Below, piece after piece: positions 5,021 through 61,346 of a stretch of 64,000 bases of DNA (position 1 is its first letter; every line of letters begins with the position of its first letter). Origin of the DNA: a virus; IMG/VR virus record IMGVR_UViG_3300045988_166693, positions 32,001 to 96,000 of that record; one strand, written 5' to 3'. Under the pieces are notes generated by a model. That model was not told the origin of the DNA, did not search any database, and saw only the letters and a program-made list of their open reading frames with translations. The position numbers and the translations under genes were made by a program.

Positions 5021-7138
5021 TTAAAGTGTGTATAGTTCGATTTTCACGTCCGCTACTCCCGTGACACCGAGCGTATAGGAAATTCTGTTGATAAAACCCG
5101 TGAACCGGCCGATCCGGTAACGGCGGAAAAAGTCAATGTTCACAATCTGCATGATATCCATGCGCACCTGGAGTGTGACGGTTTTCTTGTTGGACATGAA
5201 GTAGAGATATTCCGACAGGAACTTCGCCACAAATCCGCGGCCCTTGTACTTCTCCCCGATGGGATAACCGTCTTTTTCGGCCACCGGCTTCAGGGAAAAG
5301 CGGTTGGTCTGATCTGCGCCGCCGGCTTCCGTCCCGTTGTAGTCAAAGAAACGGCCGAAGTTGTCACAGCTGTCCGAAGTGAAAGCGTAACTGCCCACGG
5401 TCTGAATCCAGGAGTCGTTGTTTTCTCCGTCGTAATTGGCATTGATAATCTCCACGCCGGAGTCATTACCCGGGCCTCGCATGATTCCCAGGGTATAACC
5501 TGCATCGTAGGTGGCGAGCGGGGATTCCGTGGTTTCTTCGCGGTCAAAATTTTCTCCGGTGTCGAAGGTGACATCAGCGGTAATATCCTTGATGTTCTGA
5601 AGGAACAGGAAGTTCCCCATGAGCGGAAGGACAGAAACCGTAGTCCTGGTGTCCGAAAGCAGGCTCACATCGGCAAATACGGCCAGTCCCTGCTGGGCTT
5701 CCTTGCCTTCGGAAGCCATCTGGCTGGTAGATGCCCCGGAAATGTCGTTCACAATGACCGGCGAGAAAGACAGCTTGATCTCTTCCGCTTCTTCCGGATC
5801 AGCGCCTTCGGTCTCGTAGTCGCGGAAACCGCCCACCTCGAACAGTGACGGATCACCGCCCGTATCCTTGTTGACCTTGATGCGGTAAGCATTTCCGGTG
5901 ATCCGGTCGATGTAGCAGGTCGTATCGTAGGCCGACTGCCCCATTTTCAGGATTTCCAGATAGCCGTCTTTCTCCGACACGTTTGTATAGTCGGTGTAGT
6001 TGAACGTCGTATCGTCATCCTGCCCGTATGTGATGCGGTAACCCTTGTTCTTCTCCTTGGTAACAGCATACGAAAGAATATCCACATCGAGCGTATTGGT
6101 TTCCCGGTTCTGGAAAATGTTTCTCAGCAGGTAGATCCGCATCAGCCGGTCGCGCTCGTCGTACACAAAACGCACCCCGAACGCATTCTGAAGGTCTTCG
6201 ATCACGTCCTTCACTTCCAGATCCGGAAAATTCGCATTGGTGGCATACACATCACGCACGGAATAGGTGAAATCGCTGTTTCTGAAGGTTCCCATAATAG
6301 GCACAATTCCTTTCCCGCCGGTCACTTTTACTTCCAGCGAGAAGGAAGGTCCGATGAACGACTCACTGATCACGTCCGTATACTGGATGGTCCGGCTTTC
6401 ACCGCTCTTCACCTCGCAACGGGTAGAGAAGAAAGCCAGACGGCAAAGGTCTTCCACATCGAGCATTTCGTTCTTGTCGACACCTATGTCCAGTTTCTTC
6501 ATCACCAGGTCAATGAGATACATCACGTAGAAGCATACGCCGCTGTACGAGCGCTTTGCTTCGAGAGCTGGAGCATATTTCCCGTTCTCGTCGGATGCAC
6601 ACACCCGGACGTTGCAGAAGGTCTTGACGGGATACGGATCAGATACATTGAACTCGGTGAAATTCATCAGGTTCCTGTACGGGAGATAAACATACATGGG
6701 ATAGACGGAGCCCTGTATTTCGGGTGCCGTGTCTGCCCGGTAAAGCTCATATCCCAGCTTCAGCTCGCGGTCGAGCGGGATCTCGTTGGCCTTCATGCCC
6801 TCCAGCTTGTCCATAAAGTTACCAGTCCCGGAAGAAAAGGTAACCGGCAGGCTGTCCTCAAATTCAATCTCGTCGTCGGTAGCGATGGTTCCGCGGTAGA
6901 TCATTACGCCGTTGAACCAGATCTCCGTATCACTCTTGTCGATCTCCCGGAGCGGACGGTCCCCGAAGGGATCGTCCACATTCTTGAACACCTCGCGGTT
7001 GGGAGCGAGCGGGATCTCAAAGGGGAACGAAAATGTTCCCTGATCATTGAATACCGGGCTGGTCTGTTCCAGGTCGATGGAGAAATCATCCGGAAGGCAG
7101 ATCCACTGCCCGCCTATCTTAATCTGTAGTCCTTTCAT
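5021..7138 (-). CDS. tail/baseplate structural protein (705 aa)
   Basis: Lies immediately downstream of the tape measure (6-nt gap), the usual position of a distal-tail or hub protein. No motif recognised. Confidence 0.5.
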   Translation of the reverse strand: MKGLQIKIGGQWICLPDDFSIDLEQTSPVFNDQGTFSFPFEIPLAPNREVFKNVDDPFGDRPLREIDKSDTEIWFNGVMIYRGTIATDDEIEFEDSLPVTFSSGTGNFMDKLEGMKANEIPLDRELKLGYELYRADTAPEIQGSVYPMYVYLPYRNLMNFTEFNVSDPYPVKTFCNVRVCASDENGKYAPALEAKRSYSGVCFYVMYLIDLVMKKLDIGVDKNEMLDVEDLCRLAFFSTRCEVKSGESRTIQYTDVISESFIGPSFSLEVKVTGGKGIVPIMGTFRNSDFTYSVRDVYATNANFPDLEVKDVIEDLQNAFGVRFVYDERDRLMRIYLLRNIFQNRETNTLDVDILSYAVTKEKNKGYRITYGQDDDTTFNYTDYTNVSEKDGYLEILKMGQSAYDTTCYIDRITGNAYRIKVNKDTGGDPSLFEVGGFRDYETEGADPEEAEEIKLSFSPVIVNDISGASTSQMASEGKEAQQGLAVFADVSLLSDTRTTVSVLPLMGNFLFLQNIKDITADVTFDTGENFDREETTESPLATYDAGYTLGIMRGPGNDSGVEIINANYDGENNDSWIQTVGSYAFTSDSCDNFGRFFDYNGTEAGGADQTNRFSLKPVAEKDGYPIGEKYKGRGFVAKFLSEYLYFMSNKKTVTLQVRMDIMQIVNIDFFRRYRIGRFTGFINRISYTLGVTGVADVKIELYTL

Positions 7139-18271: not shown

Positions 18272-18577
18272 TCAGAGGGGGAAAGGTTTGTTTCCGAGCC
18301 ATTTCCGCATATTTTCGCATTGTATTCGCAACATTTTCTGCGTAGAGAGGCGGGCGTCAAAGTTCGTGAGGATATGTGTCACGGTACGCTCCCTGACACC
18401 TATTTTGGCAGCTATATAAGAAGGTGAGAAACCGGTCTCCGAGAGGAAATGCACAAGAAGGTAGCGTGCGTCGACCGTCTCCATGTCTTTGCGCCGCGAG
18501 AGAATCTGCGGGCACGAGATTTCTGTTTCCTCCGACACCTTGCGGAGGATATCATTAAATATGTCACTTTTACTCAT
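18272..18577 (-). CDS. small HTH DNA-binding protein (101 aa)
   Basis: The internal ATG of track ORF 18272..19120 gives MSKSDIFNDILRK...VDARYLLVHFLSETGFSPSYIAAKIGVRERTVTHIL, which is HTH-like. The upstream 181 codons of the track ORF are out-of-frame shadow over the lipoprotein gene. Confidence 0.5.
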   Translation of the reverse strand: MSKSDIFNDILRKVSEETEISCPQILSRRKDMETVDARYLLVHFLSETGFSPSYIAAKIGVRERTVTHILTNFDARLSTQKMLRIQCENMRKWLGNKPFPL

Positions 18578-18648
18578 CGTTTCTTTTATTTGGTTGGGAC
18601 TTGCGCCCCGTGTTTTTCGTATCTTCCTTTGCAGACAGCCTGCTGCCG

Positions 18649-19227
18649 TTACCATTGCAGCAGGTTGTAGTTGAGAGTCACCGCCACGACAGCGCCCATC
18701 TTTCCGTCCGGTCCGACGCCGTAACCGACACTCAGTCCGATGCCCCACCGCTTCCTTTTCGGAGCAGGAGGCGTCACAACGCCGGTCTGAGTCTGCCGGT
18801 AGAACTCGGCCGAAACCAGCCGGGGACGGTAGCCGGAAACCACGATCCGGTAGTCGTCGGTGCGGTATTCCTTTTCGGTGATGGGGATCAGTACGTCGGC
18901 ACTGTCCGCCGCGATGGAGTCCTTCCGGACAGGGAACCGGCCTGTCTCCAGCGTATCGGGCCGGGAGACGGCAGCCGAATCTTCCGCACCGGAAGCCGGT
19001 ACGGAAGGTTTCTGCGGCCGCAATACGGGCAGTCGTGCGGTGTCGGTACCCGCCGGACGTTCGGACACGGGCGGAGCAACAGCCGTGTCGCGCAGTGTGT
19101 CCACCCTGACGGGCAGCCACACCGTGTCTGCGGTTCCCGAACCTGGGTCAGCGCATCCCCGGAAGAAAAGCGAGAAGAGGAGCGCCGCCGTCAGAACGCC
19201 TGCCAGTATCCACGGAAGCTGCTTCAT
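18649..19227 (-). CDS. lipoprotein coupled to the endolysin (spanin-like position)
   Basis: MKQLPWILAGVLTAALLFSLFFRGC is a signal peptide plus lipobox. Its start overlaps the amidase stop by 4 nt. Pro-rich linker and Gly-rich C-terminus. Confidence 0.6.
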   Translation of the reverse strand: MKQLPWILAGVLTAALLFSLFFRGCADPGSGTADTVWLPVRVDTLRDTAVAPPVSERPAGTDTARLPVLRPQKPSVPASGAEDSAAVSRPDTLETGRFPVRKDSIAADSADVLIPITEKEYRTDDYRIVVSGYRPRLVSAEFYRQTQTGVVTPPAPKRKRWGIGLSVGYGVGPDGKMGAVVAVTLNYNLLQW

Positions 19228-19796
19228 ACGCCCAGGTATTTGCAGATACCGTCCACATGGATGGCGGTAATCTTCTGTTTGCCTTCTTCAGACAGCAGGA
19301 AGTCCACGTCTTCCCGGTTGTCCTGAAACAGGTTCTCCGTGAGCACGGCCGGGCATGCGGTGTGCCTGAGGATGTAGAAACCGCTTTCCTTGTCGCTGTC
19401 GCCGTCGGAAGTGTCCTTGCGGATCTTCATACCCTTGAGCACCTGCGAAGCCTGCTCATACAGGCACTCGGCCAGGGTGTCGGCCCTGGTCTGACCTACA
19501 CTGGTCCATGCTTCCCAGCCGCGTCCGGTCATCCACTGCGAGCCGTTTCCGGCTGCATTCAGGTGGATGGAAACCAGAATGCTGTCCTTCACGCGGTTGG
19601 CGCGTGCGCAACGCTCCTGCAGGGAGATGTCTTTCTCTTCGGGGACGAGCAGCTGTGCGTCCAGACCTTTGGCCTTGAGCGCACTGACCACTCTTGCGGC
19701 TATTTCTCGGGCGTAGGCATACTCCCTCACCCGTCCGTCGGGAGACCGCTTCCCGGCGGTATCCGATCCGTGCCCGTTGTCAATCCAGATTTTCAT
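19224..19796 (-). CDS. N-acetylmuramoyl-L-alanine amidase (endolysin)
   Basis: IWIDNGHGSDTAGKRSPDG ... VSIHLNAAGNG ... VLTENLFQDNRED match Amidase_3-type metal and active-site segments. Confidence 0.85.
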   Translation of the reverse strand: MKIWIDNGHGSDTAGKRSPDGRVREYAYAREIAARVVSALKAKGLDAQLLVPEEKDISLQERCARANRVKDSILVSIHLNAAGNGSQWMTGRGWEAWTSVGQTRADTLAECLYEQASQVLKGMKIRKDTSDGDSDKESGFYILRHTACPAVLTENLFQDNREDVDFLLSEEGKQKITAIHVDGICKYLGV

Positions 19797-21598: not shown

Positions 21599-21606
21599 AA
21601 AAAAAA

Positions 21607-21630
21607 TAGCCCGATCTCACGACCAGGCTA
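21607..21630 (-). terminator. 10-bp stem, GTGA tetraloop, T8
   Basis: Minus strand: tagcctggtcGTGAgatcgggcta followed by tttttttt. Near-identical copy at 26812..26835. Confidence 0.7.
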
Positions 21631-21660: not shown

Positions 21661-21894
21661 TTACAAACACCCGATAATAATACCTACCGCATCAGCTATA
21701 AGGCCTTTCTTGTCGAATGTGCCTTTCTTCATCAGTTTATCCCAAACAACTTCCTTCCCCACTCCGGCCAATGCGGCAACTAATACCGCTACCCACAGAG
21801 GAAGGATCAGGTTAAGGACAACTACCATCACATTGCTCGCAATGACGTGCTTTAGTCCGTCATGTCCGAAATAATTGAATACTTTGCTTATCAT
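21661..21894 (-). CDS. small two-TM membrane protein (77 aa), holin-like
   Basis: Hydrophobic segments VMVVVLNLILPLWVAVLVAALAGV and LIADAVGIIIGCL. 4-nt overlap with the upstream gene. Confidence 0.4.
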   Translation of the reverse strand: MISKVFNYFGHDGLKHVIASNVMVVVLNLILPLWVAVLVAALAGVGKEVVWDKLMKKGTFDKKGLIADAVGIIIGCL

Positions 21895-22601
21895 GCTTCT
21901 ACTTTTTGAACAAATCCACCACTTACAAGGTCTGCAAGGTTATGAGTTACCTTGTTGCCTGTATTTCTGATACACTTATATACTACTCCGCTTTGGGTGT
22001 AATACTTGCCTTCTTCCAGTATCATTCCCTGCCACATCGGATTTAACTCTTCGTTGTAAGGTATCGGGTCTTCCAATGTTCCTTCGTGATCTTCTACTAC
22101 TTCAACCCATAAAGACGACTGGTTCCCCGGAGACCAGTTAGATTGCGTAGTGTGATCCTGCATTACTTCGTAAAGTTTCCCGTTGTACTTATACTTTTCT
22201 CCCTGTTTTACCTGCACGCTGTCTGCCGACCATTCGGGATAAAACTCTTTAACCGACAATGCTTCCTTGTTGGTAAGATTGAGTGTGCCGATAATCTCAT
22301 TAACCATAGCGACATCTTTTTTCAACCGTTCCAAATCTGAATACTTCGGCATTACTCCACTTTCAGCAGTCCAAATCTCATCTTCCTGCACTTCTTCGCC
22401 TGTTCGTTTCCATATCTGCACGAAGCATACATCATACTCCCTGTAAACACAAAACTCCGCATCGGACGGCTGTTCCACTTCGCAAACAGGTTTATATCCT
22501 TGTGCGATAATTTCCTCTTCGGTAAGCTTTCCGCCCACCTGCACTCCTTTTTCCACTTCAAGCGTCTGAAGTGTTCCTTCTGTAATTTTTCCGTACTTCA
22601 T
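21891..22601 (-). CDS. fibre-associated protein, paralog of 27706..28350 (236 aa)
   Basis: C-terminus GTLEDPIPYNEELNPMWQGMILEEGKYYTQSGVVYKCIRNTGNKVTHNLADLVSG aligns with GTKEDPIPYNNNMELFEGKYYSQNGITYKCTRNTGQAVYQDLSGLVG. The start is placed at ATG 22601 (MKYGKITEG). The track start 22727 would overlap the RT by 89 nt. Confidence 0.55.
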   Translation of the reverse strand: MKYGKITEGTLQTLEVEKGVQVGGKLTEEEIIAQGYKPVCEVEQPSDAEFCVYREYDVCFVQIWKRTGEEVQEDEIWTAESGVMPKYSDLERLKKDVAMVNEIIGTLNLTNKEALSVKEFYPEWSADSVQVKQGEKYKYNGKLYEVMQDHTTQSNWSPGNQSSLWVEVVEDHEGTLEDPIPYNEELNPMWQGMILEEGKYYTQSGVVYKCIRNTGNKVTHNLADLVSGGFVQKVEA

Positions 22602-22638
22602 ATTATTAATGTTTTTAAATATTGCTATCAATTGTCCG

Positions 22639-24111
22639 TTATGCTCGCATATATGCAGGCTCGCGGAGCTGTAGGGGGAACCTCCTTTTCGGATAGTACC
22701 TTGTCGGCGGTTTGAATATGGAAGCATAGTCGTTCAGGTTTAGATATGATGTCTTGTTTGGTTTATACTTGTCTTTCAGCACACAGACGAACCTGCCGTT
22801 CTTGTTGCGGAAATACAGCCATTCGGAGAATGTTTCCAGAGCTTTCTTTGCTATGCGCTTTTTGATGTTGAAGGACGCTGTTCCTTTCATCAGACCGAAA
22901 TAGCTGTTTATGCTTTGCATGACGTGTACGGCGTTATCGTACGACGGCATCCGGCTGTATTCTTCTATCGCTGTATGGAGGGCATGTACTGTACGGTTGG
23001 ATATGTAAATACGGTTCAGCTTTACTACCTTTCCGCAGAACTTTACTCCGTGTAAGGCCGGCTGTATGTAGAATTTATCGGGATGGACTTTGAGTTTCAA
23101 CCGCTCGGCTACTTTGATGAATACTTTCCGGGCATGGATTATTTCGGATGCGGTTTCTGCCACCACGCATATATCATCTACAAACCGTGTGTATCTAACT
23201 CCGGTTTTTATCATTTCCGCATCGGCTTCGGCCATGACGAGGTTTGCCAACAATTGGGAATAGAAGTTTCCAATCGGGAGTCCTTTTTCGGGCGGGAGTC
23301 CGAAAAGGCTTTTGTTGGGCGGTACTTTATCCCACATTTTTATATCGGAACGTCGCTCGCAGTCTGTGGCCGGATTATGCTGTATCAGGGTGTGAAGCAG
23401 GAGGAGTTTTTCCTCCTTATCGGGCTTGTCGTAGTACATATCGGCGTATTTCCGCAAGATACGGTATGCTGTTTCCTTGTCTATCGACATAAAGAAGCCT
23501 GATATGTCCATTGTGGCTACGAAGGCTTTCTTTGTGTAGCCGTCCGTTATATCACGGATGTTCCGCTGTATCTGCTCGATGGCTGTAGATGCGGAATGTC
23601 CGATACGGTTGCCGTGGCTTACATCACCATTGGCTTCATGGACTTTCTCGCATATCTCTCCAAGCATCGGGGCAACGTAGTGGTGCACGATGCGGTCGGT
23701 GTAGTTTGCTGCGAAAACTTCTCTATACACAGGGTAGTCGAGGACAAAGCAGATGCTTGTCTGTGGCTGGTATCCGTTGTCTATCCTGTTTATCAATTCA
23801 TAAATACGCGACAGGTTGAAATGGAACGATGCTGCTTCGAGCGATGCGTGCTTGTTTTTGTAACAGTCGCTTTCGGCAGCTATCCAGGCGGACACTTTTT
23901 CTGATAAATCGGAGGCGGGCACCACACTATAGGTGTTGTTCGTGTTGTTGTTGTTCAAGTTGCCATTGCCCATGTTCACATACCAGGCATTGTTGCCATT
24001 GTTGCGGACACAGCTCCAGACGTTGCCGCCCAGGACTTCTGCCCTGTTAATCGAAATAGCTTGCTCACTGCAAGCACAGGGACCTTTATCATTAAACAGT
24101 TCTGCCGACAT
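22639..24111 (-). CDS. DGR reverse transcriptase
   Basis: LPIGNFYSQLLANL matches the DGR-RT I/LGxxxSQ motif, RFVDDICVV is the YxDD box, and FFMSID is RT motif 1/2-like. The ORF as drawn includes the TR in frame, so the true start is uncertain. Confidence 0.85.
   Translation of the reverse strand: MSAELFNDKGPCACSEQAISINRAEVLGGNVWSCVRNNGNNAWYVNMGNGNLNNNNTNNTYSVVPASDLSEKVSAWIAAESDCYKNKHASLEAASFHFNLSRIYELINRIDNGYQPQTSICFVLDYPVYREVFAANYTDRIVHHYVAPMLGEICEKVHEANGDVSHGNRIGHSASTAIEQIQRNIRDITDGYTKKAFVATMDISGFFMSIDKETAYRILRKYADMYYDKPDKEEKLLLLHTLIQHNPATDCERRSDIKMWDKVPPNKSLFGLPPEKGLPIGNFYSQLLANLVMAEADAEMIKTGVRYTRFVDDICVVAETASEIIHARKVFIKVAERLKLKVHPDKFYIQPALHGVKFCGKVVKLNRIYISNRTVHALHTAIEEYSRMPSYDNAVHVMQSINSYFGLMKGTASFNIKKRIAKKALETFSEWLYFRNKNGRFVCVLKDKYKPNKTSYLNLNDYASIFKPPTRYYPKRRFPLQLREPAYMRA
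23910..24037 (-). repeat. DGR template repeat (TR)
   Basis: 128-bp gap-free match to 24554..24681 with 18 mismatches, all at TR adenines on the coding strand. Rich in AAC/AAT codons. Confidence 0.9.
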
Positions 24112-24114
24112 AGT

Positions 24115-24468
24115 TCAAGACTTTTCGGTTCTGACATTCTTTATCCTCGCAAGCGAAGATAAAATGTTATCGCACAAAACGTCTATTACAGACGCTTTCT
24201 CTTTGCTGCATCCTCCAAGAGCCACTATCAAGTATATCCCAAACTGCAATTCGTATGTCAGTTCTGTAGCTCTTTTATAATAGTCCATTCCGCGGACCTG
24301 ACGCATAGCGTAACTGAAAAGCAATGCGCCTTGCTTCAGCATTGGGTCTATATATGTTCTGCTTATGACCTTATAAGCTTTGCTGTTGATTTCTATGAGA
24401 CAATTATTCAGGCGTATAACGTCCTGAATAATTGGTGCATCCAAATGTTTCCTCCCGGATCTGTTCAT
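24115..24468 (-). CDS. avd: DGR accessory variability determinant (Avd)-like protein
   Basis: 117-aa basic, helical ORF located between the VR-bearing target and TR/RT, the canonical avd position. Assignment rests on position and size. Confidence 0.6.
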   Translation of the reverse strand: MNRSGRKHLDAPIIQDVIRLNNCLIEINSKAYKVISRTYIDPMLKQGALLFSYAMRQVRGMDYYKRATELTYELQFGIYLIVALGGCSKEKASVIDVLCDNILSSLARIKNVRTEKS

Positions 24469-24518
24469 TTCTATTGTCGCGTATTAAATGTTAATATATT
24501 TTAATGCAAAAGTTGATG

Positions 24519-24537
24519 AGCCGTGCTCCGCACGGCT
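24519..24537 (-). other. GC-rich hairpin downstream of VR
   Basis: agccgtg/cacggct is a 7-bp stem (8 bp with C-G closure). It lies 16 nt 3' of the VR/TR homology boundary and 8 nt after the target stop codon. Confidence 0.5.
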
Positions 24538-24545
24538 GAGATAAA

Positions 24546-25964
24546 TCAAAAAGCGGAGGCGGGCACCACACTATAGGTGCTGCCCGTGCTGCTGCTGGTC
24601 AAGGTGCCACCGCCCATGCCCACACACCAGGCACTGCCGCCACCGTTGCGGACACAGCTCCAGACGTTGCCGCCCAGGACTGCAGGAACTCCCCATTTCT
24701 CATAACTGTTAAGATAGTTTATTAATCCTGAAATTATGCTTTTGTTTGTCCAGTATGGATATAATTCTTTCTCTCCGGCCATATATTTATTTTCAAGAGA
24801 TTTAATGTAATACACAGCATGAGAGTCCGCCATATTCCAGTCATAATTTGTACTGGAATTGCCGGGTCTGCTTATGTATGGGGTAATGATATACCAATAA
24901 CCGTCAACGGTAATTGCTTCTGCTCCTTTTGCTCCCGGAGAAAGAAGAGGTCGTTCGGCAGAATTTACTCCGGTGTCGTTCATGTTTACACCGTTTGTTT
25001 TCTGCTGTTCGTACAGCCATTCAGCATATTCAGGTTTGAAATAGTATGCGTTGTTTACCGAATGCCTGTTATTTGTATTGTACATTGCTTTCAAGCCTGT
25101 ATTCTGGCCGTTTACGAAGAAAAACATATCTTCGCCTGCCTGAGCCTGTGTACCTGACGAATTCAGGATTTCCAGATCGGTTATTGTGCCTTCTGCTTCA
25201 GAAGATGTTATGCCGCTACAGATAGCAAACCTGTGGCGAAGCCATTCATTCTGTACATACATGGCTTCAAGACGTTCGGCGTAATTATCCGCTATCATAG
25301 CATTTACATTGCCGCAATTCTTTTCCATTATCCAGCGTTGCCTGGTATTGCCGCTGTAAAGTTCAAGCTTATCGTCTTCAGTTACGGTTACGCTCCAGTC
25401 GGCTGCAAAGTGACTTCCTACGGTATGTGTGCCAAGGTTTTCATCTACTGTCCCATGATAGTCAGTACCTTCGCGTACGCCGGTCATCTGGTCGTATTCA
25501 TAAATTGAGTGTTGCATAGCGTTTGATGCTTTGTTTGTGGTACCGGATGTGGCGTAATATTCTCCCTTCCACGGCCAATAAAGAATGGCTCTGATACCGT
25601 TACATTCCAAAGAAAAACCTACAGGAGGAGCAATGAGTTCATTGTCAAAGCCATTTGCCATGCTTCGGTCGTTCCATTCTTTTACTGTGTAATGTTTCAG
25701 GTCTGCATCTACAATCTTGATATGGTCGTTTGTGGCTATCGCTGCAGTCTTTCCTTCACTCGTGGTGATAATGGTCGAACGTACCGGCAGTATCAGCATT
25801 TGCGATTCAAGGGCGTATTCATCCACTGTCGGAATGGCTGCTATTTTAGCCGGGTATTCGGAAAGGATTTCTCCGACATTTTCCACTCCTTTTGCCTCAA
25901 TAGCTGCCTTAATCGCAGCTTTACTGGCTAATATCTTGTTTAGTTTGTCTGCTGTTGTTCCCAT
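24546..25964 (-). CDS. DGR target protein, putative receptor-binding fibre protein
   Basis: The C-terminal ...GGNVWSCVRNGGGSAWCVGMGGGTLTSSSTGSTYSVVPASAF is encoded by VR. The start codon shares 1 nt with the upstream stop codon (TAATG). Confidence 0.85.
   Translation of the reverse strand: MGTTADKLNKILASKAAIKAAIEAKGVENVGEILSEYPAKIAAIPTVDEYALESQMLILPVRSTIITTSEGKTAAIATNDHIKIVDADLKHYTVKEWNDRSMANGFDNELIAPPVGFSLECNGIRAILYWPWKGEYYATSGTTNKASNAMQHSIYEYDQMTGVREGTDYHGTVDENLGTHTVGSHFAADWSVTVTEDDKLELYSGNTRQRWIMEKNCGNVNAMIADNYAERLEAMYVQNEWLRHRFAICSGITSSEAEGTITDLEILNSSGTQAQAGEDMFFFVNGQNTGLKAMYNTNNRHSVNNAYYFKPEYAEWLYEQQKTNGVNMNDTGVNSAERPLLSPGAKGAEAITVDGYWYIITPYISRPGNSSTNYDWNMADSHAVYYIKSLENKYMAGEKELYPYWTNKSIISGLINYLNSYEKWGVPAVLGGNVWSCVRNGGGSAWCVGMGGGTLTSSSTGSTYSVVPASAF
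24554..24681 (-). repeat. DGR variable repeat (VR)
   Basis: See TR. Covers the last ~43 codons of the target. The 3'-terminal 26 nt, including GGTGCCCGCCTCCG, are identical to TR. Confidence 0.9.
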
Positions 25965-26215
25965 TATATAACTTCTCCGTTTATATTGTCAAGGATTGAG
26001 TTGATATCTCCTATCTGGTCGATTGTCGCATACTTTTTATCTGCTTGTAAACCCGTGATAAAGCCGCTTACATCGGGAATATCACTGGGTTTGGCCAGCT
26101 GATCTGTCTGTATATATTTTTGCGTACCATTATCGGAAACATAAATTCGCTCCGTGCCTTTTATATCTTCCAGTTTAGTCTGTACCTGACTTAATTTTGT
26201 TCCTGTAATTGCCAT
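25964..26215 (-). CDS. small fibre-associated protein (83 aa)
   Basis: ATG ORF translationally coupled to the DGR target. The ending SILDNINGEVI is common in phage fibre-module proteins, as far as I recall. Confidence 0.5.
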   Translation of the reverse strand: MAITGTKLSQVQTKLEDIKGTERIYVSDNGTQKYIQTDQLAKPSDIPDVSGFITGLQADKKYATIDQIGDINSILDNINGEVI

Positions 26216-26269
26216 AATATTATCCTATTTTATATATCTCCAATACTTTTCATATCCAGGCATGGATTT

Positions 26270-26476
26270 CTACAGCTCTGACTCCAGCCTAAAGTACGTG
26301 CCGTCCTCCATCAGAAATAGACTGCCATCCTCCATAAGAAGCGCGTCCGAAATCTGAGGGATATCTTCTCCTCCAGAATCTTCACACAAATTACATGTGC
26401 AAATGTCTTCAGGTATTCTTATTTCAGCAATGCGTATGGCTCCTATATCAGTTTGCGCCAAATGGATTCCTTTCAT
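26270..26476 (-). CDS. hypothetical protein (68 aa)
   Basis: ATG ORF with a 4-nt overlap with the upstream gene. Internal LMEDGSLFLMEDGTYF duplication. Confidence 0.45.
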   Translation of the reverse strand: MKGIHLAQTDIGAIRIAEIRIPEDICTCNLCEDSGGEDIPQISDALLMEDGSLFLMEDGTYFRLESEL

Positions 26477-26803: not shown

Positions 26804-26811
26804 AAAAAAAA

Positions 26812-26835
26812 TAGCCCGGTCTCACAACCAGGCTA
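26812..26835 (-). terminator. 10-bp stem, GTGA tetraloop, T8
   Basis: Minus strand: tagcctggttGTGAgaccgggcta followed by tttttttt. It differs from the 21607 copy at two stem positions, and both changes preserve pairing. Confidence 0.7.
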
Positions 26836-26879
26836 GCCTATGGATATTATAAACAAATTGAAGTATTGATCATCCTTTG

Positions 26880-27012
26880 AAAAAAGAAGGAGACGATTTC
26901 TCGTCTCCTCCCCACATTCTATCACTCATTGAGCACTACCTCATTATAGAATGTCGTTTAATTCTCACTCTTCGGAATAGATCGCGTTCTCGGTTTACAC
27001 GTGCGAAATGTT
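26880..27012 (-). ncRNA. candidate ~130-nt short transcript (promoter to terminator, no credible ORF)
   Basis: Bounded by a canonical promoter (27020..27050) and the hairpin ggagacga-gaaa-tcgtctcc plus ttctttttt (26889..26908). The longest ATG ORF on that strand is 19 codons. Confidence 0.3.
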
Positions 27013-27019
27013 TTCGATG

Positions 27020-27050
27020 CAAAGGTATAGAAAAGATTATTTGCAGCAAA
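27020..27050 (-). promoter_or_regulatory. canonical Bacteroides-type promoter TTTG-N19-TACCTTTG
   Basis: Minus strand: TTTGctgcaaataatcttttctaTACCTTTG. Confidence 0.5.
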
Positions 27051-27229
27051 CATTTCTGCGGATATTTGTTTGAATTATGTTAGTTTTAACTTATTTTTAA
27101 CCTATTATTATCCATTTTCGCCATCCGGCGACAAAAAAGGCGGTTTTTTAAGCCCGCCCATGATCTGATCATTCGTCTTTGAGGTAGTCCAACGTATTTT
27201 ATTTATATCTAATCGAAAATATAATAAAA

Positions 27230-27252
27230 AACCTGCCATTTTAAGGCAGGTT
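27230..27252 (-). terminator. stem-loop plus T-run after 27279..27692
   Basis: Minus strand: aacctgcc-ttaaaat-ggcaggtt followed by ttttttatt. Confidence 0.65.
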
Positions 27253-27278
27253 AATTAAATAGAGATAAAAAGTATCTG

Positions 27279-27692
27279 TTAATCAAGCATGATTTTCAGA
27301 AGATCCAGTTTGGACATAGGCCACTTGTTTTCCTTTGCCAGTTGGATTGCTCCTTCATCGGAAATCTTTTCAAGAGTTACTTCTACTTCCTTTTCAAGTT
27401 CCGGTTCACAGGCTGCATCTACTTTCTTCTGGTATGGCGCAAAGAAATTGTTAAGTTCTTCCTTTTCACTCTCCGGAAGTTCATTCCACTTGCGGGCCTT
27501 TTCCTGCATTTCGTCAAAGTTCTTAGGCTTGAACTTTTCCTGTGCATCCTTCAGAAGTGCATCATAGGCTTCCACATGCTTGCGCATTTCCTTCCGGTTC
27601 TTAATAATACTGACTGCATCTTTGTCGTTTACACTTGTGATCACTGCATCATCCAGCATTTTGTATGCTATAACTACTGTTTTAAGTTTCAT
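27279..27692 (-). CDS. hypothetical protein (137 aa)
   Basis: ATG ORF, last gene of the fibre operon. Charged and helical. Confidence 0.5.
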   Translation of the reverse strand: MKLKTVVIAYKMLDDAVITSVNDKDAVSIIKNRKEMRKHVEAYDALLKDAQEKFKPKNFDEMQEKARKWNELPESEKEELNNFFAPYQKKVDAACEPELEKEVEVTLEKISDEGAIQLAKENKWPMSKLDLLKIMLD

Positions 27693-27705: not shown

Positions 27706-28350
27706 TTAGTTTGCTACTTCTACATAAATTCCTACAAGTCCGGACAAGTCCTGATATACGGCCTGTCCGGTGTTTCTGGTACATTTGTACGTGATACCAT
27801 TCTGGGAGTAATACTTTCCTTCAAATAACTCCATGTTGTTATTGTACGGAATAGGATCTTCTTTTGTCCCGGCATTGGTTTCGTTGATTTCTTCGTACAA
27901 TGCTGCCGTATCAACGCTAGGCGGTTGGTTTTCCAGTACATTTTCAATAGTCTGTTTCACTTTATAAAGCCTGTCCTGATAAAGCACCTTGTAATCTTTT
28001 TCAAGTTTCTGACTGATGAAATTTTCCCAGGCTGGGTACAGGTTCTTAAACTGCAATGCCTGTTCGTCCGTAAGGTTCATGGCGTTGATCTGTGAAGCAA
28101 ACAGACCGATCATCTGATTTACCTGTTCTTCCGGATAGACTACCTGACCCCTTGCAGCTTTCTTTGCCTTGAAGATACGTTCCGCATCTTCTTTGGTGAT
28201 TTCAGTCCATTCATCGTTACTTTCATCCAAAGGGATATATACCTGTTTCGCTACTACCCGATCTTCATCTTTTGTTGCGGAAGATTGCGTAAGAAACTTC
28301 CCATACATCGGGGATATCCACTTTCCTTCTTGTTCTGTTCTTATTTCCAT
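27706..28350 (-). CDS. fibre-associated protein, paralog of 21891..22601 (214 aa)
   Basis: Shares a C-terminal ~90-aa domain with the paralog (LYPAWE..., EDPIPYN, GKYYSQNGITYKCTRNTG). Confidence 0.55.
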   Translation of the reverse strand: MEIRTEQEGKWISPMYGKFLTQSSATKDEDRVVAKQVYIPLDESNDEWTEITKEDAERIFKAKKAARGQVVYPEEQVNQMIGLFASQINAMNLTDEQALQFKNLYPAWENFISQKLEKDYKVLYQDRLYKVKQTIENVLENQPPSVDTAALYEEINETNAGTKEDPIPYNNNMELFEGKYYSQNGITYKCTRNTGQAVYQDLSGLVGIYVEVAN

Positions 28351-29746: not shown

Positions 29747-32700
29747 AGCCTAGCTTTTTAAGTTGTTTTTTTAATATGACTATTTCTCTCTCAAGTTTCT
29801 TGATTTTCTTATCGGTTCTTGTTTCATAAGTTAGCAAGTGTCTAGCGGTATGAACCGCAAACGTATACGCTACTGTTGCATAGTCCATAGACAGGAAGTT
29901 ATCATTCTCTTCCACGGCCCACGGAAGGATTGACTGAGTATATTGGGCCGATCCTCCCAAGTTCAGCCTATTTTGATTCATATTAGGTCTATTCCACCGA
30001 TACACAAATGAAGGTGCTTTTGCTATGTCCATAAGAGACAAATTTACCTGCTGCATTATTGACTTGTATCGTATATCAGAACTATAAAATGTGGCACCGC
30101 CAGATACAAGCAAGTTACCTACTATTTCAACGTAACCGCCTCCATATATAGAAAATGAGCATCCTGCACTTGTACCTGCGTCATTATTACTTACAGCCAT
30201 AAAAATGCGCCCCCAGTCATTCGCATCATCACGTACAGATCCAAAAACATATCTAGTTTGGTACCCTCTACCATTCACAATATCTCCCCATCTTATGATT
30301 GGCCTAAAAGTACCACCATTTACATATATCCCATCGCTGGAATATCTTATAGACGAAAGGTTAGAAGTAAACATTTCTGATGATTCCAAACCTGTTAAAG
30401 TATTATCTTCTAATATATATCTTGCTCCTCTAATATCACTTGACCCGTAAATACCTCCATTTACATGCAACTTATAACTGGGAGATGTAGTTCCTATACC
30501 AACATATCCGCTGGGATTTATTCCTAGATTTGAACCAAGATTTTGGATAATTCTTGCACCGGCATATCCTATAATATCATTGTTGCCTATATCAATGTTG
30601 CCTGTGACATTACTTGTTCCGTCAAAGGATTGTCCCCAAATAGTTCGTGCTGTCTGTAACTTAGTAGCTGATGCAACATTATCACTTAATAAAGCCAAAT
30701 TTCCGTTTCTTGTTGGCAAAATCAATGTGTTACTATGATCCCCGTCGCATTGCAGTCTAGTTGAATAATCAATGGCTCCAGTTGATGAATTATGAAAATC
30801 AATATATTTTCCGACTTCAAATGTTCCATCAGTTTCTACAAAAGGAATAACTCCCCAATATGTACTTCCGGATCTCTTGTGTGTTCCATCTAACTTGTCG
30901 GCATTGCTGGCATTTCCACTAATATTAATACCCCATGTTCCACTTGCTCCGCTTCCCGTTTTAGTAGGGTACTTGCTGTCGCTTTCACTTTTTGTATATG
31001 CACCGATTCCAGCCGGAGTTATATTGATAGTCTTAGCCCCGGTTGCGTTGTAAGTAAATTGGTTCGTTCCCTCTGTTGTTCCTCCGTTCAGTTTTACAAT
31101 TAAATTCTGCTTCCCTGTGACTTCTGAAATAGTCGGCCAGCGAGTAACGTATGCAGACGGAGCAGCCTTTAACAACGCATCCCAATTAGCGTGCAGATCC
31201 GAGATCGTAGCAATGCTTACAGCCGTTAGCCATGCAGGTTTTTGCGCTGCTAGTACAGAATCCCAGCTAGAATGCAGGTCAGTAATATTTGCAATATTAG
31301 TCGCAAACACAGAAGGCTTTCCGGAAATATTGCCCCATGCAACGCTACCAGCTTCTCCACCTCCTACTGCTACTAATTTCCCGTTTTCCTTCTTTATAGT
31401 AGTACCATCCACTACTACCCCATCCATGACTGTAGACACGGAAACCGGATCTATTGCATACATTGTAACACCGCCTGTAACAGCTAGATTTCCCTCTAGG
31501 GTAATTACTCCGTCTGCGGTTTTGTGCAAGCGAATACCGCCTATATAAAAATCTCCAGTTTTAGTAACTCCGTCTATATTTGCATTTCCACCTAAATATA
31601 AATCTTTCCATTTCGCATCAGACAAGCCTAAATTAATGCTGTTGCTTGCTGCGCCAAAAGGTCTAAAAGATTTAAGTTCTAACAAGACAGATAAAGTATC
31701 ATCATTGTTGATTTTAAATCTTATGTTTTGGTTATTTTTAGTAATTACATCAATAGTTCCACTTCCTGTTATATTTCCAACATTATCTAAATTTCCGCTT
31801 ACATTCTCAGTTCCGTCAAAGCTACGTCCCCATAACGTGCGAGCAGTTTCCAACTTAGTGGAAGCGTAAGCATACAGGTCGGTTATTGTTTTTGTCGTTC
31901 CACCGACAGTTATGGAAAGGTTAGTTGCTGATGAAGTTGATAATGCAGTAAGAAGTCCTGTTTTGTGAGTTCCGTCCAAAAGATCAGCGTCTAGACCGCT
32001 TCCTGCACCGTCATTACCACTATCCCAAACCGTCCTACCTTTCCATAAAAGATTTGTAGTTGTAAGATGAAATGCATGCACGGTATTATCGGTATCCGTA
32101 AGAGATAATCCACCTCTATTAGTTGTAGTAGAATGGAACAAATTGATCTGATCTGTTCTTCCTCTAAATTTTACAGATAGATTTCCGGTCATTGTATCTC
32201 CGGACACATTGACATATCTACTATCAGCGTCCGTCTTGGTATAAGCGTCCGTAATACCATAACCGGACAGGGTTGTCGGCTTTCCGCTGGTTATATCAGA
32301 CCATGCATGTTTATGTCCACTAAGGCTAAACGTACTTCCCTTGGTCAGAGTAAGAGTGTGTCCGCTAATAGATGCAGCAGTTACGGCATTACCTATTCCG
32401 GTAACACTGACAGCATTAATTCCATCTGTTATACCATAGCCAGCTAATGTTGTAGCTTTAACGGCATAGTTTTTCCCGGACACCCAGCTTTCAGTTGCGT
32501 ACCCGGTTAAAGCAGTAGTAAGGTGCGACTTGTTGATCTGTTCCGTGGTAGATCCGGCCAATGCTGTCCACATGGCAGACTTATCAAAGGATGATCCGCT
32601 GCCCTCTCTTGCTTTCAAAACTCTTGATCCGTCAACTTCTTGCCAGTAGATTGTATCGTTGTCTATGGGCAGTCCGTCATAAATTGAAGGGAAAGAAACA

Positions 32701-59789: not shown

Positions 59790-61346
59790 ATGAAAAGAAA
59801 CCATTTAAACGATTTCCTTGTAGAACAAATAAAAAATAAAGACTCTCAAATTGAAGGTCTCAATCAACTTATTTCCAGCCTTATCGAAAAAATCGAATCA
59901 CTGGAAAAGAATATCTGTTCGTATGAAAATCTTGTGAAAGAACTTCGTGATACTATAAATCTACTCAATAAGAGATTATATGGGTCAAAAAGCGAAAAAT
60001 CTCACTCAGAGAACTCAGAAAGGAAGTATAATGGTGAAAAACTAAGTTCCAAGGGAACTTATCCTAAAGAAAAGATTGAAGAAAAACCGGATAAAAAGTC
60101 GAATCCTCGTAAAGCGTATAAACGTCCAGAAAGACGTACATACGACGATATAGAAGAGAAAATAGAAATACTTGAACCGGATGCTGAAGAATTGATAGGA
60201 GCAAAATTTGTTCGCTCTGAAAAATCATTCCGCTTATATATGATTCCGGCGAAAATTGTAAAAGTAATCTATGACAGAAGGATTTATGCAAAAGACGGAC
60301 ATTTAATTATGCCTAAACTTCCTTATACTCCAGAAGAATTTTACAGAAGGCACGCAGATCCGTCATTGATGGCTGGTATCCTTACTAATAAATTTCTATA
60401 TCATTTACCTATACATCGCCAGTTAAATATGTTTGTAAATGCCGGAGCTAAAATCGCGCGTTCAACTTTATATGACTGGTGTGGTACAGCTATTGATGCT
60501 CTTGAAGGACTTTATTATTCCATCATGTCAGAGGTGCTAAAAGGTAACTATTTGAATATAGACGAAACGACAATCTCTGTAATTGATGAAGATGTCCATC
60601 ATGCAAAGAAAGAATATATGTGGGGGCTTGTTAACACCAGAAGTAAATTGACTTTCTTTGCTTATGAAGATGGCTCTAGAAGCAGGAATGTAATCAGTAA
60701 CATATTAGAAAGCTATATAGGTACAATTCAAACAGATGGATATTCGGCGTATAAGTCTATAGGAGAAAACGAAAATAATAAAATTCAAAGGTTATCTTGT
60801 CTTAGTCATATAAGAAGAAAGTTTTTGGAAAGTAGAGATAACGACAGAGAAAATTCAGAAAAGGCACTTGGAATTATAGATAAAATATATAGGCTTGAAA
60901 GATTTTTCAGAAAACAAAAATTTCATCCTGATAAAATAAGAGAGTATAGAATTAGGTATGTAGTGCCGATATTTCATAAATTCAAGAATTGGCTTGAAAA
61001 AAGTATATCCAATCCTAAGATTCTCGATGAAACTTTAATCGGGAAGGCCATATCGTATGCCTATCGTGAATTTAAGGCTCTTACGTTAATTTTTGATGAT
61101 GGATTCTTTAAAGCTGATAACAATGCAGCAGAAAGAGCTATGCGACCATGCAAACTCGGAATGAATAATTATCTTTTCTTCGGAAATCACGAGAGCGCAA
61201 GGAGAGGAGCTATTATTTACACTATCATTGAAAGTTGTAAATTAAATGGCATAAATGTGTTCGAATATCTTACAGATGTTTTTAGCAGAGAACCCCAACC
61301 AGGAGAAACGTACGATATGTTTCTCCCGAACAGGTGGAATCAATAA
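59790..61346 (+). CDS. IS66-family DDE transposase
   Basis: 518 aa with an N-terminal coiled coil. NIDETTISV, QTDGYSAYK and NNAAERAMRP fit the IS66 transposase conserved blocks. Confidence 0.75.
   Translation: MKRNHLNDFLVEQIKNKDSQIEGLNQLISSLIEKIESLEKNICSYENLVKELRDTINLLNKRLYGSKSEKSHSENSERKYNGEKLSSKGTYPKEKIEEKPDKKSNPRKAYKRPERRTYDDIEEKIEILEPDAEELIGAKFVRSEKSFRLYMIPAKIVKVIYDRRIYAKDGHLIMPKLPYTPEEFYRRHADPSLMAGILTNKFLYHLPIHRQLNMFVNAGAKIARSTLYDWCGTAIDALEGLYYSIMSEVLKGNYLNIDETTISVIDEDVHHAKKEYMWGLVNTRSKLTFFAYEDGSRSRNVISNILESYIGTIQTDGYSAYKSIGENENNKIQRLSCLSHIRRKFLESRDNDRENSEKALGIIDKIYRLERFFRKQKFHPDKIREYRIRYVVPIFHKFKNWLEKSISNPKILDETLIGKAISYAYREFKALTLIFDDGFFKADNNAAERAMRPCKLGMNNYLFFGNHESARRGAIIYTIIESCKLNGINVFEYLTDVFSREPQPGETYDMFLPNRWNQ

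Follow-up and report, generated by a model that had tools for sequence, protein, structure and literature searches.

A diversity-generating retroelement with an embedded template repeat in an uncultured long-tailed phage

We analyzed a 64,000-nucleotide (nt) stretch of viral DNA (positions 32,001 to 96,000 of IMG/VR record IMGVR_UViG_3300045988_166693; this whole stretch is the window below) and conclude that it very probably carries a complete, recently active diversity-generating retroelement (DGR). The element lies on the minus strand of an uncultured long-tailed phage and has the canonical order: a target gene ending in the variable repeat (VR), a gene for an accessory protein (avd), the template repeat (TR) and the reverse transcriptase (RT) gene. 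The full order on this strand is an 83-residue open reading frame (ORF), the target with its VR, a hairpin, a 117-residue ORF and a 490-residue RT ORF that contains the TR. An avd-TR-RT unit with the target upstream is the commonest DGR architecture, B1 of Wu et al. (PMC5758913). More than 30,000 DGRs have been catalogued, and phage clades that target tail proteins dominate gut samples (PMC8144416). A DGR acting on a phage tail-associated protein is expected biology and a well-known kind of system. Only the embedded, probably translated TR and the stem-loops 5' of it go beyond the textbook picture.

Adenine-specific differences between the repeats

The TR (23910..24037, minus strand) lies inside the RT ORF and in frame with it. 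The VR (24554..24681, minus strand; hypervariable core 24574..24668) ends 5 nt ahead of the target stop codon. Direct comparison of the two repeats gave a gap-free match of 128 nt, at an offset of 644 nt, with 18 mismatches. All 18 fall where the TR reads T on the plus strand and hence A on the minus, coding strand. Of the 36 adenines in the coding strand of the TR, half (18/36) are substituted in the VR, and there are no non-adenine differences. A preliminary description of this DNA, made from its letters alone, had given the same gap-free alignment with adenine-only mismatches, and our comparison reproduced it exactly. Its protein readings of the two repeats, with 13 differing codons, likewise agree with the translations in the ORF list. 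An independent repeat search recovered the identical TR/VR pair (family D1). The probability that chance would place all 18 mismatches on adenines is 1.2e-10 by a binomial and 2.4e-12 by a hypergeometric calculation, and a probability of ~1e-10 rules out a chance repeat as the origin of the pair.

The TR contains 20 mutable codons, 14 of them AAY (Y being C or T), and none can be converted to a stop codon. About 1e20 protein variants are reachable from it. The final 18 nt of the repeat are free of adenine and the last 14 (24554..24567, GGTGCCCGCCTCCG) are GC-rich. This GC-rich, adenine-free 3' segment is identical between TR and VR and resembles the GC-rich part of an initiation of mutagenic homology (IMH) sequence. 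A scan of both strands of the window, with the TR adenines treated as wildcards, recovered the known VR alone and no second one.

We extended the comparison to sibling genomes. Scanning IMG/VR with the RT yielded 30 loci whose RTs are 94-99% identical to it; their contigs reach 123 kb, and many measure ~100-110 kb. Both repeats were readable in 27 of the 30 loci, giving 28 genomes with the window's own included. The adenine specificity described for the single genome holds across this population: when each of the 27 siblings' TRs was compared with its own VR, 506 differences fell at TR adenines and 5 elsewhere. The 506 adenine-site differences comprise 257 A>G, 143 A>T and 106 A>C changes. Sibling TRs are near-identical (0-5 differing positions), and no two VRs are alike. 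Non-adenine TR polymorphisms, among them T>C at position 52 of the repeat and C>G at position 124, recur in the cognate VR. One sibling, IMGVR_UViG_3300045988_156510 (L013), carries a 3-nt TR deletion that removes one AAC codon (TR at about 5850..6010 of that contig), and its VR, about 640 nt upstream, is equally shortened, so that the indel was passed between the repeats. The TR polymorphisms and the deletion mirrored in the VRs indicate that information moved from TR to VR after these genomes diverged. Together, adenine-only divergence, stable TRs, all-different VRs and mirrored TR changes indicate recent activity in the lineage.

The sibling comparison also delimits the mutagenised core, which runs from 24024 to 23930 in the TR, equivalent to 24668 to 24574 in the VR, and covers 33 TR-adenine positions. 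Three more adenine positions, 24040, 24038 and 23909, differ between the repeats in every genome; being fixed, these differences mark homology boundaries, not mutagenesis. Within the mutagenised span, two adenines are unsubstituted in all 28 genomes, and a third is substituted in just 1. The invariant pair consists of the first bases of the scaffold serine codons AGC and AGT, which is consistent with purifying selection. In farther lineages (45-63% target identity) the cassette is kept, with 0-1 non-adenine differences between the repeats in 19 of 20 loci. The 28 near-identical genomes with independent VRs provide a clean natural data set.

The cassette could also be a fossil, a former DGR that is now idle in this genome and whose VR is fixed. 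Decay does occur in the clade; for example, the RT homologue P0183 has lost most of the Asn codons of its TR-encoded segment. Against this, the RT ORF in the window is intact with all catalytic motifs, the TR retains its 36 adenines and 14 AAY codons, and siblings with 94-99% identical RTs all differ in their VRs. This genome also has no non-adenine TR/VR difference at all, which implies that the repeats have gained no ordinary point mutation since homing last occurred. We consider a fossil cassette very improbable.

The reverse transcriptase, the accessory protein and the target

The RT ORF (22639..24111, minus strand, 490 residues) was identified from the ORF list, Pfam and PHROG matches and its motifs. 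It matches Pfam RVT_1 (1e-15) and phrog_1423 (5e-51). A leader occupies residues 1-25, the TR encodes residues of about 26-67, and the RT core starts at about residue 68. The DGR-type LPIGNFYSQ motif and the FVDD box that the preliminary description had noted are both present, with IGNFYSQ at residues 280-286 and FVDD at 310-313. IGNFYSQ aligns with QGGPLSP of the group II RT GsI-IIC, the slot of the QGxxxSP motif, and (I/V/L)GxxxSQ is a published marker of DGR RTs (PMC3521204). Among the 120 closest homologues, the I, G and Q of the motif are invariant, the S is kept in 118, and the FVDD box is kept in 116-119. The nearest annotated RTs found by tblastn are those of Bacteroides phage BS-TP1, phages Bacuni F1/F2/F4, the Faecalibacterium phages Lagaffe and Mushu, and ANMV-1. 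All are from phages, several of which have published DGRs. Similarity to the RT chain of Bordetella phage BPP-1 (8ub7_A) is low (E = 4e-4).

Other classes of RT were rejected. The group II intron RT/maturase profile TIGR04416 scored 76.9 bits against a cut-off of 300, the Retron St85 profile scored 54.9 against 235, and the defence RTs Drt2, Drt3a and Drt4 scored far under their cut-offs. PADLOC returned only generic partial RT matches of <=82 bits.

The preliminary description had placed a helical 117-residue ORF in the avd slot. Such a gene is present (24115..24468, minus strand), and its product is basic, with an isoelectric point (pI) of 9.48; the mean pI of Avd proteins is 9.5 (PMC5758913). 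A single-sequence structure prediction gave a four-helix model with a predicted local distance difference test (pLDDT) score of 80. The top Foldseek matches of this model all belong to the Avd/S23-IVS family: 2gsc, 2rld, 4dwl_D (Bordetella phage Avd) and the Avd chains of 8ub7 (a DGR ribonucleoprotein), with template modeling (TM) scores of 0.67-0.77. The protein had no match in PHROGs, NCBIfam or PADLOC, and a phmmer search and two profiles run against PDB sequences returned nothing relevant. Aligning it by hhalign with a canonical-looking Avd from a more distant element (L031) also gave no match. The family is small: a first homologue search gave 4 members and an exhaustive search gave 32 representatives at 50% clustering. 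We describe the protein as Avd-like; of these comparisons, only that of folds identified it.

The target gene (24546..25964, minus strand) encodes 472 residues arranged as N-terminal helices, a beta-rich middle and a C-terminal domain that bears the VR. Its homologues form more than 364 clusters, hypervariable at the matching C-terminal positions throughout, and the VR scaffold W-S-C-V-R ... A-W-x-V ... G-x-G is conserved. In three of the clusters, built at 90% identity (P0007, P0038 and P0005), 892, 673 and 208 distinct members are recorded from 1-2 contigs; many members on few contigs is the pattern expected from hypervariation at one locus in assemblies. The target sequence has no match in Pfam, PHROGs, NCBIfam or PDB sequences. 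Besides its sibling genomes, the locus offers an unannotated target family and a sequence-orphan Avd-like family.

An AlphaFold2 model of the target (pLDDT 83) matches DUF1566/C-type-lectin-like domains at its C-terminus, where the preliminary description had suggested looking for a C-type-lectin fold. The best PDB match of this C-terminal domain is that of Legionella Lcl (8q4e_A), with a Foldseek probability of 1.00 and E = 1.5e-2, and phage DUF1566 proteins and phage tail-fibre proteins superpose with a root-mean-square deviation of 2.5-3.0 Å over 87-103 columns. On these models, the C-terminus appears to be a DUF1566/C-type-lectin-like domain. The same type of variable domain is found in the Legionella pneumophila DGR of the DUF1566/'CLec2' class (category d; Wu et al. 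2018, PMC5758913), and by eye the VR scaffold W-S-x-x-R ... A-W-x-V ... G also resembles that class. The Legionella DGR, however, is cellular and diversifies lipoproteins, whereas the element described here lies in a phage late region and its target has no sequence match to Pfam DUF1566.

We think it most likely that the target domain binds a ligand on the host surface. The preliminary description had proposed that the element diversifies a receptor-binding tip: the VR does lie on a lectin-like C-terminus, while the receptor-binding role is drawn from fold and gene context. The DGR could instead act on another virion-surface or secreted adhesin that binds, for example, mucus or glycans. The target has no Pfam or PHROG family, and no part of it but the C-terminal domain resembles a known structure; between it and the 1537-residue fibre gene stand terminator-like hairpins and non-coding DNA; it lies beside lysis genes, such as an amidase-like ORF at 19224..19796 (labeled by eye from its translation); and non-phage adhesins, Legionella Lcl for one, carry DUF1566 domains too. 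This alternative seems unlikely to us, because the target sits in the late structural region between a fibre gene with a chaperone-like C-terminus (phrog_26019) and the lysis genes, some of its matches in BFVD bear the names tail fiber or Peptidase S74 fibre protein, and surveyed phage DGR targets are mostly tail proteins (PMC8144416).

A GC-rich hairpin, AGCCGTGC-GGA-GCACGGCT (24519..24537, minus strand), follows the VR. Its 8-bp stem begins 16 nt past the end of TR/VR homology, and its fold has a z-score of -2.4. It is unchanged in the 27 sibling VR flanks recovered, although the surrounding flanks vary. Other lineages keep a CGTGC-GGAT-GCACG core, and the outer stem pairs covary. In BPP-1, homing requires a hairpin/cruciform with a 7-10-bp GC-rich stem and a 4-nt GRNA loop, 4-34 bp from the VR (Guo 2011, PMC3240598). 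By analogy, the hairpin here is a candidate target-recognition hairpin/cruciform. Several lineages lack a T-run after the hairpin, and we rejected a simple intrinsic terminator as its identity.

These components suggest the following mechanism. The avd-TR-RT transcript would serve as the template, and the RT together with the Avd-like protein would copy the TR into complementary DNA (cDNA), placing random bases opposite template adenines. The cDNA would then replace the VR at the target gene's 3' end. Replacement would be directed by the identical adenine-free, GC-rich 3' segment and, if BPP-1 is a guide, aided by the hairpin downstream of the VR. Up to 20 codons on the lectin-like domain could be rewritten in this way, with no stop codons possible.

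We compared the element with the BPP-1 DGR (mtd-VR, avd, TR, brt). The two share the gene order, and in both the transfer from TR to VR is adenine-specific, the VR forms the 3' end of a tail-associated gene whose product has a lectin-like fold, the accessory protein is a basic four-helix bundle (fold matches 4dwl and 8ub7) and the RT has an SQ motif. The repeats of both end 3' in GC-rich sequence free of adenine, and a GC-rich 8-bp hairpin follows each VR, with a GGA loop here instead of GRNA. They differ in the RT, which has 328 residues in BPP-1 and 490 here, and in the target domain, which is of the Mtd type in BPP-1 and of the DUF1566 type here. In BPP-1, a ~140-nt non-coding spacer follows the TR, primes cDNA synthesis and pairs with a segment of avd. 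The element in the window has no such spacer; its TR lies within the RT ORF, and RNA structure is conserved in the form of local stem-loops on the 5' side of the TR.

Several observations weigh against the reading of this locus as a complete and active DGR with a lectin-like target. The sequence downstream of the TR yielded nothing equivalent to the spacer RNA of BPP-1 with its Avd-binding stem-loop: RNAalifold on 7 sequences gave -5.6 kcal/mol with a covariation term of -0.3. The loop of the post-VR hairpin is GGA (3 nt) here and GGAT in relatives, as opposed to the GRNA tetraloop reported from phage DGRs. The Foldseek E-values of the Avd-like protein are weak (0.01-0.1), as is usual for helical bundles, and the protein matches neither Pfam bAvd (PF22296) nor 23S_rRNA_IVP (PF05635), even at E = 10; of 21 relatives, 1 matched PF05635 (E = 0.023). 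The C-type-lectin assignment is a local structural match (E = 1.5e-2 against the PDB) with no Pfam domain, and a role of the target in adsorption is suggested by its fold and gene context. Finally, activity in this particular genome is deduced from the population comparison and not from cDNA observed directly.

A template repeat embedded in the RT gene

The avd stop codon is followed by 3 nt and then by the RT start codon, a TGA-ACT-ATG junction (…TCTTGAACTATG…) that is kept in every lineage examined; the 3-nt spacing holds in every lineage from L063 to L086. From this ATG, a single frame runs through the leader, the TR and a 15-residue linker into the RT core. The linker has the form (D/E)-(L/F)-x6-W-x2-A-E-x2-C. 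Differences in leader and linker length across lineages are whole codons throughout. Of the 120 RT homologues nearest to this one (39-100% identity), 110 have an in-frame, Asn-rich, TR-encoded N-terminal segment; their N-terminal extension spans 36-108 residues and begins with Met in all 110. Most of the remaining 10 are shorter gene calls or carry the segment in an Asn-poor form. That the frame survives so many indels speaks for a TR translated along with the rest of the RT, and we conclude from these alignments that it probably is. RT translation would then begin at the ATG 3 nt past the avd stop and read through the TR, and the RT mRNA would double as the template.

The arrangement extends to more distant elements. 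It is found in the 35%-identical element L031 and in BS-TP1 (PQ571274), an isolated Bacteroides phage with a 111.7-kb genome whose RT, at 33% identity, is among the nearest annotated. The annotated RT coding sequence of BS-TP1 (493 residues) runs across the TR. This phage also has the order target, four-helix-bundle protein, RT, and we confirmed that its TR/VR differences are adenine-only. It differs in its ~2187-residue target and in its accessory protein, which has 171 residues, a pI of 6.3 and a weak match to Pfam bAvd, and it has no nucleotide similarity to the window. The gene after the BS-TP1 RT is annotated as DUF4376. In the 'group 3' DGRs of Schillinger et al. (2012, PMC3521204), the TR and the 5' end of the RT ORF overlap, as here. 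That group was listed from annotation only, whereas the overlap described here is in frame, clade-wide and kept through whole-codon indels. In the literature searched, we found no paper that analyzes the TR/RT-ORF overlap beyond this listing.

Two conserved stem-loops lie immediately 5' of the TR on the minus strand. Covariation was assessed in ten sequences from about five lineages, using RNAalifold and pair counts. Stem-loop A (SL-A, 24098..24136) shows compensatory change in 7 of 10 pairs, and stem-loop B (SL-B, 24042..24081) in 4 of 11 pairs, with 96-100% of cells paired. Taken together, the two have 97.6% paired cells and compensatory change in 11 of 21 pairs, compared with 0-1 pairs in slid controls. 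SL-A spans the stop codon of avd (24115..24117) and the start codon of the RT ORF (24109..24111), which suggests that translation of the RT depends on that of avd. SL-B consists of an outer 5-bp stem and an inner GCTTGC/GCAAGC stem, the latter also recovered by a hairpin scan, and it ends 4 nt short of the TR. A 'cPRT Stop' duplex just upstream of the TR blocks the polymerase in BPP-1 (bioRxiv 10.1101/2023.10.23.563531). By analogy, SL-B is a candidate stop for cDNA synthesis, and this stem-loop abutting the 5' end of the TR may halt the RT. RNAduplex, applied to long flanks, was uninformative as to a long-range duplex across the TR, and a weak pairing could escape notice with so few lineages.

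An alternative is that the TR is not translated, that the RT starts internally after the TR, and that the long ORF is a by-product of the TR copying a coding sequence. Descent from the VR would explain a stop-free TR, SL-A and SL-B largely account for leader conservation at the RNA level, and this genome has an in-frame GTG (Val73) past the TR with an A-rich stretch ahead of it. The authors of a study of a crAss-like phage DGR state that its own TR is not translated (PMC7290462). The lineages compared, however, have no conserved start codon between the TR and the RT core, all of their leader and linker indels are whole codons, and the frame persists in 110 of 120 homologues despite extensions of 36-108 residues, each with a Met start. 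The constant 3-nt spacing of the avd stop and the ATG from L063 to L086 likewise argues against an internal start. We regard an untranslated TR as rather improbable. The siblings add little on this point, as their 70-nt leader has 3 variable sites, too few for a ratio of nonsynonymous to synonymous rates, and position-based counts in the leader are disturbed by one sibling's in-frame TR deletion.

Probable translation of the TR leads to a broader proposal, to which we give about even chances. Throughout a large clade of Bacteroidota-phage DGRs, the TR would be an obligatory, translated part of the RT gene, so that the N-terminal extension of the RT holds an unmutated copy of the target's variable segment. 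The RT mRNA would be the template, SL-B would act as the cDNA stop in place of the avd:spacer duplex of BPP-1, and SL-A would gate RT translation. If this is true, translation and reverse transcription compete on one molecule, and the priming RNA scaffold is organized differently from that of BPP-1, the only structurally characterized DGR. The generality of the spacer-based BPP-1 mechanism would then be directly testable.

In two RT homologues, P0183 (57% identity) and P0176, most Asn codons are gone from the TR-encoded segment, which resembles a mutagenised VR (…WSCVRVSGYNAWYVYLGVGNCGYVSTSTRLSVWP…). This may reflect overwriting of the TR by mutagenic cDNA, decay of the element or a chimeric assembly.

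Gene neighborhood and phage context

The preliminary description had the target co-transcribed and translationally coupled with fibre-module genes. Coupling stands for the 83-residue ORF alone, whose stop codon overlaps the target start (TAATG), while co-transcription with the fibre genes is unsupported. Terminator-like hairpins on the minus strand lie upstream (26807..26835) and downstream (21602..21630) of the DGR unit. They are near-identical, each reading TAGCCTGGTYGTGAGAYCGGGCTA followed by eight T residues, and the window holds no further copy. The unit between these twin hairpins is ~5.2 kb long and comprises three small ORFs, the DGR, a CBM5/12-like gene and a 77-residue ORF. Another strong terminator-like hairpin (27230..27252) stands between the fibre-module genes and the target unit, within ~470 nt of non-coding sequence (26810..27280, minus strand) that separates a 137-residue gene from the small ORFs upstream of the target. 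Because these hairpins and the non-coding stretch intervene, co-transcription with the large fibre gene is not shown.

The non-coding stretch contains several hairpin-plus-T-run elements, for which Rfam found nothing; Rfam and tRNA scans of the entire window were also empty. By eye, a Bacteroides-type promoter-like sequence, TTTG ... TAccTTTG, lies at about 27015..27055 (minus strand). A perfect sigma-70 consensus is present at 25963..25992 (minus strand), with TTGACA, 18 nt and TATAAT (12/12), and its -10 element overlaps the start codon of the target. The consensus is of doubtful relevance should the host belong to the Bacteroidota, whose promoters differ.

Elsewhere, the window encodes a 1936-residue tape-measure protein, the 1537-residue fibre protein and lysis-type genes, and these indicate a long-tailed phage. 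The phage has no close isolate: a megablast search of 21800..26300 against INPHARED returned no match, and the best identity of the tape-measure protein is 25%, to Flavobacterium phages. We describe the phage as an uncultured, Bacteroidota-type, long-tailed phage with a genome of about 100-110 kb.

Two paralogous genes flank the DGR unit on the minus strand, at 21891..22727 (phrog_30034, Pfam CBM_5_12) and 27706..28350 (phrog_27545). A GC-rich region at 18272..19330 has long overlapping ORFs on both strands that leave gene calls ambiguous, and it adjoins the amidase-like ORF. On the plus strand, a 518-residue transposase-like ORF (59790..61346) matches phrog_688 at 1e-89. The GC content of the window swings strongly, between 33 and 55%, which points to a mosaic origin or an inserted element.

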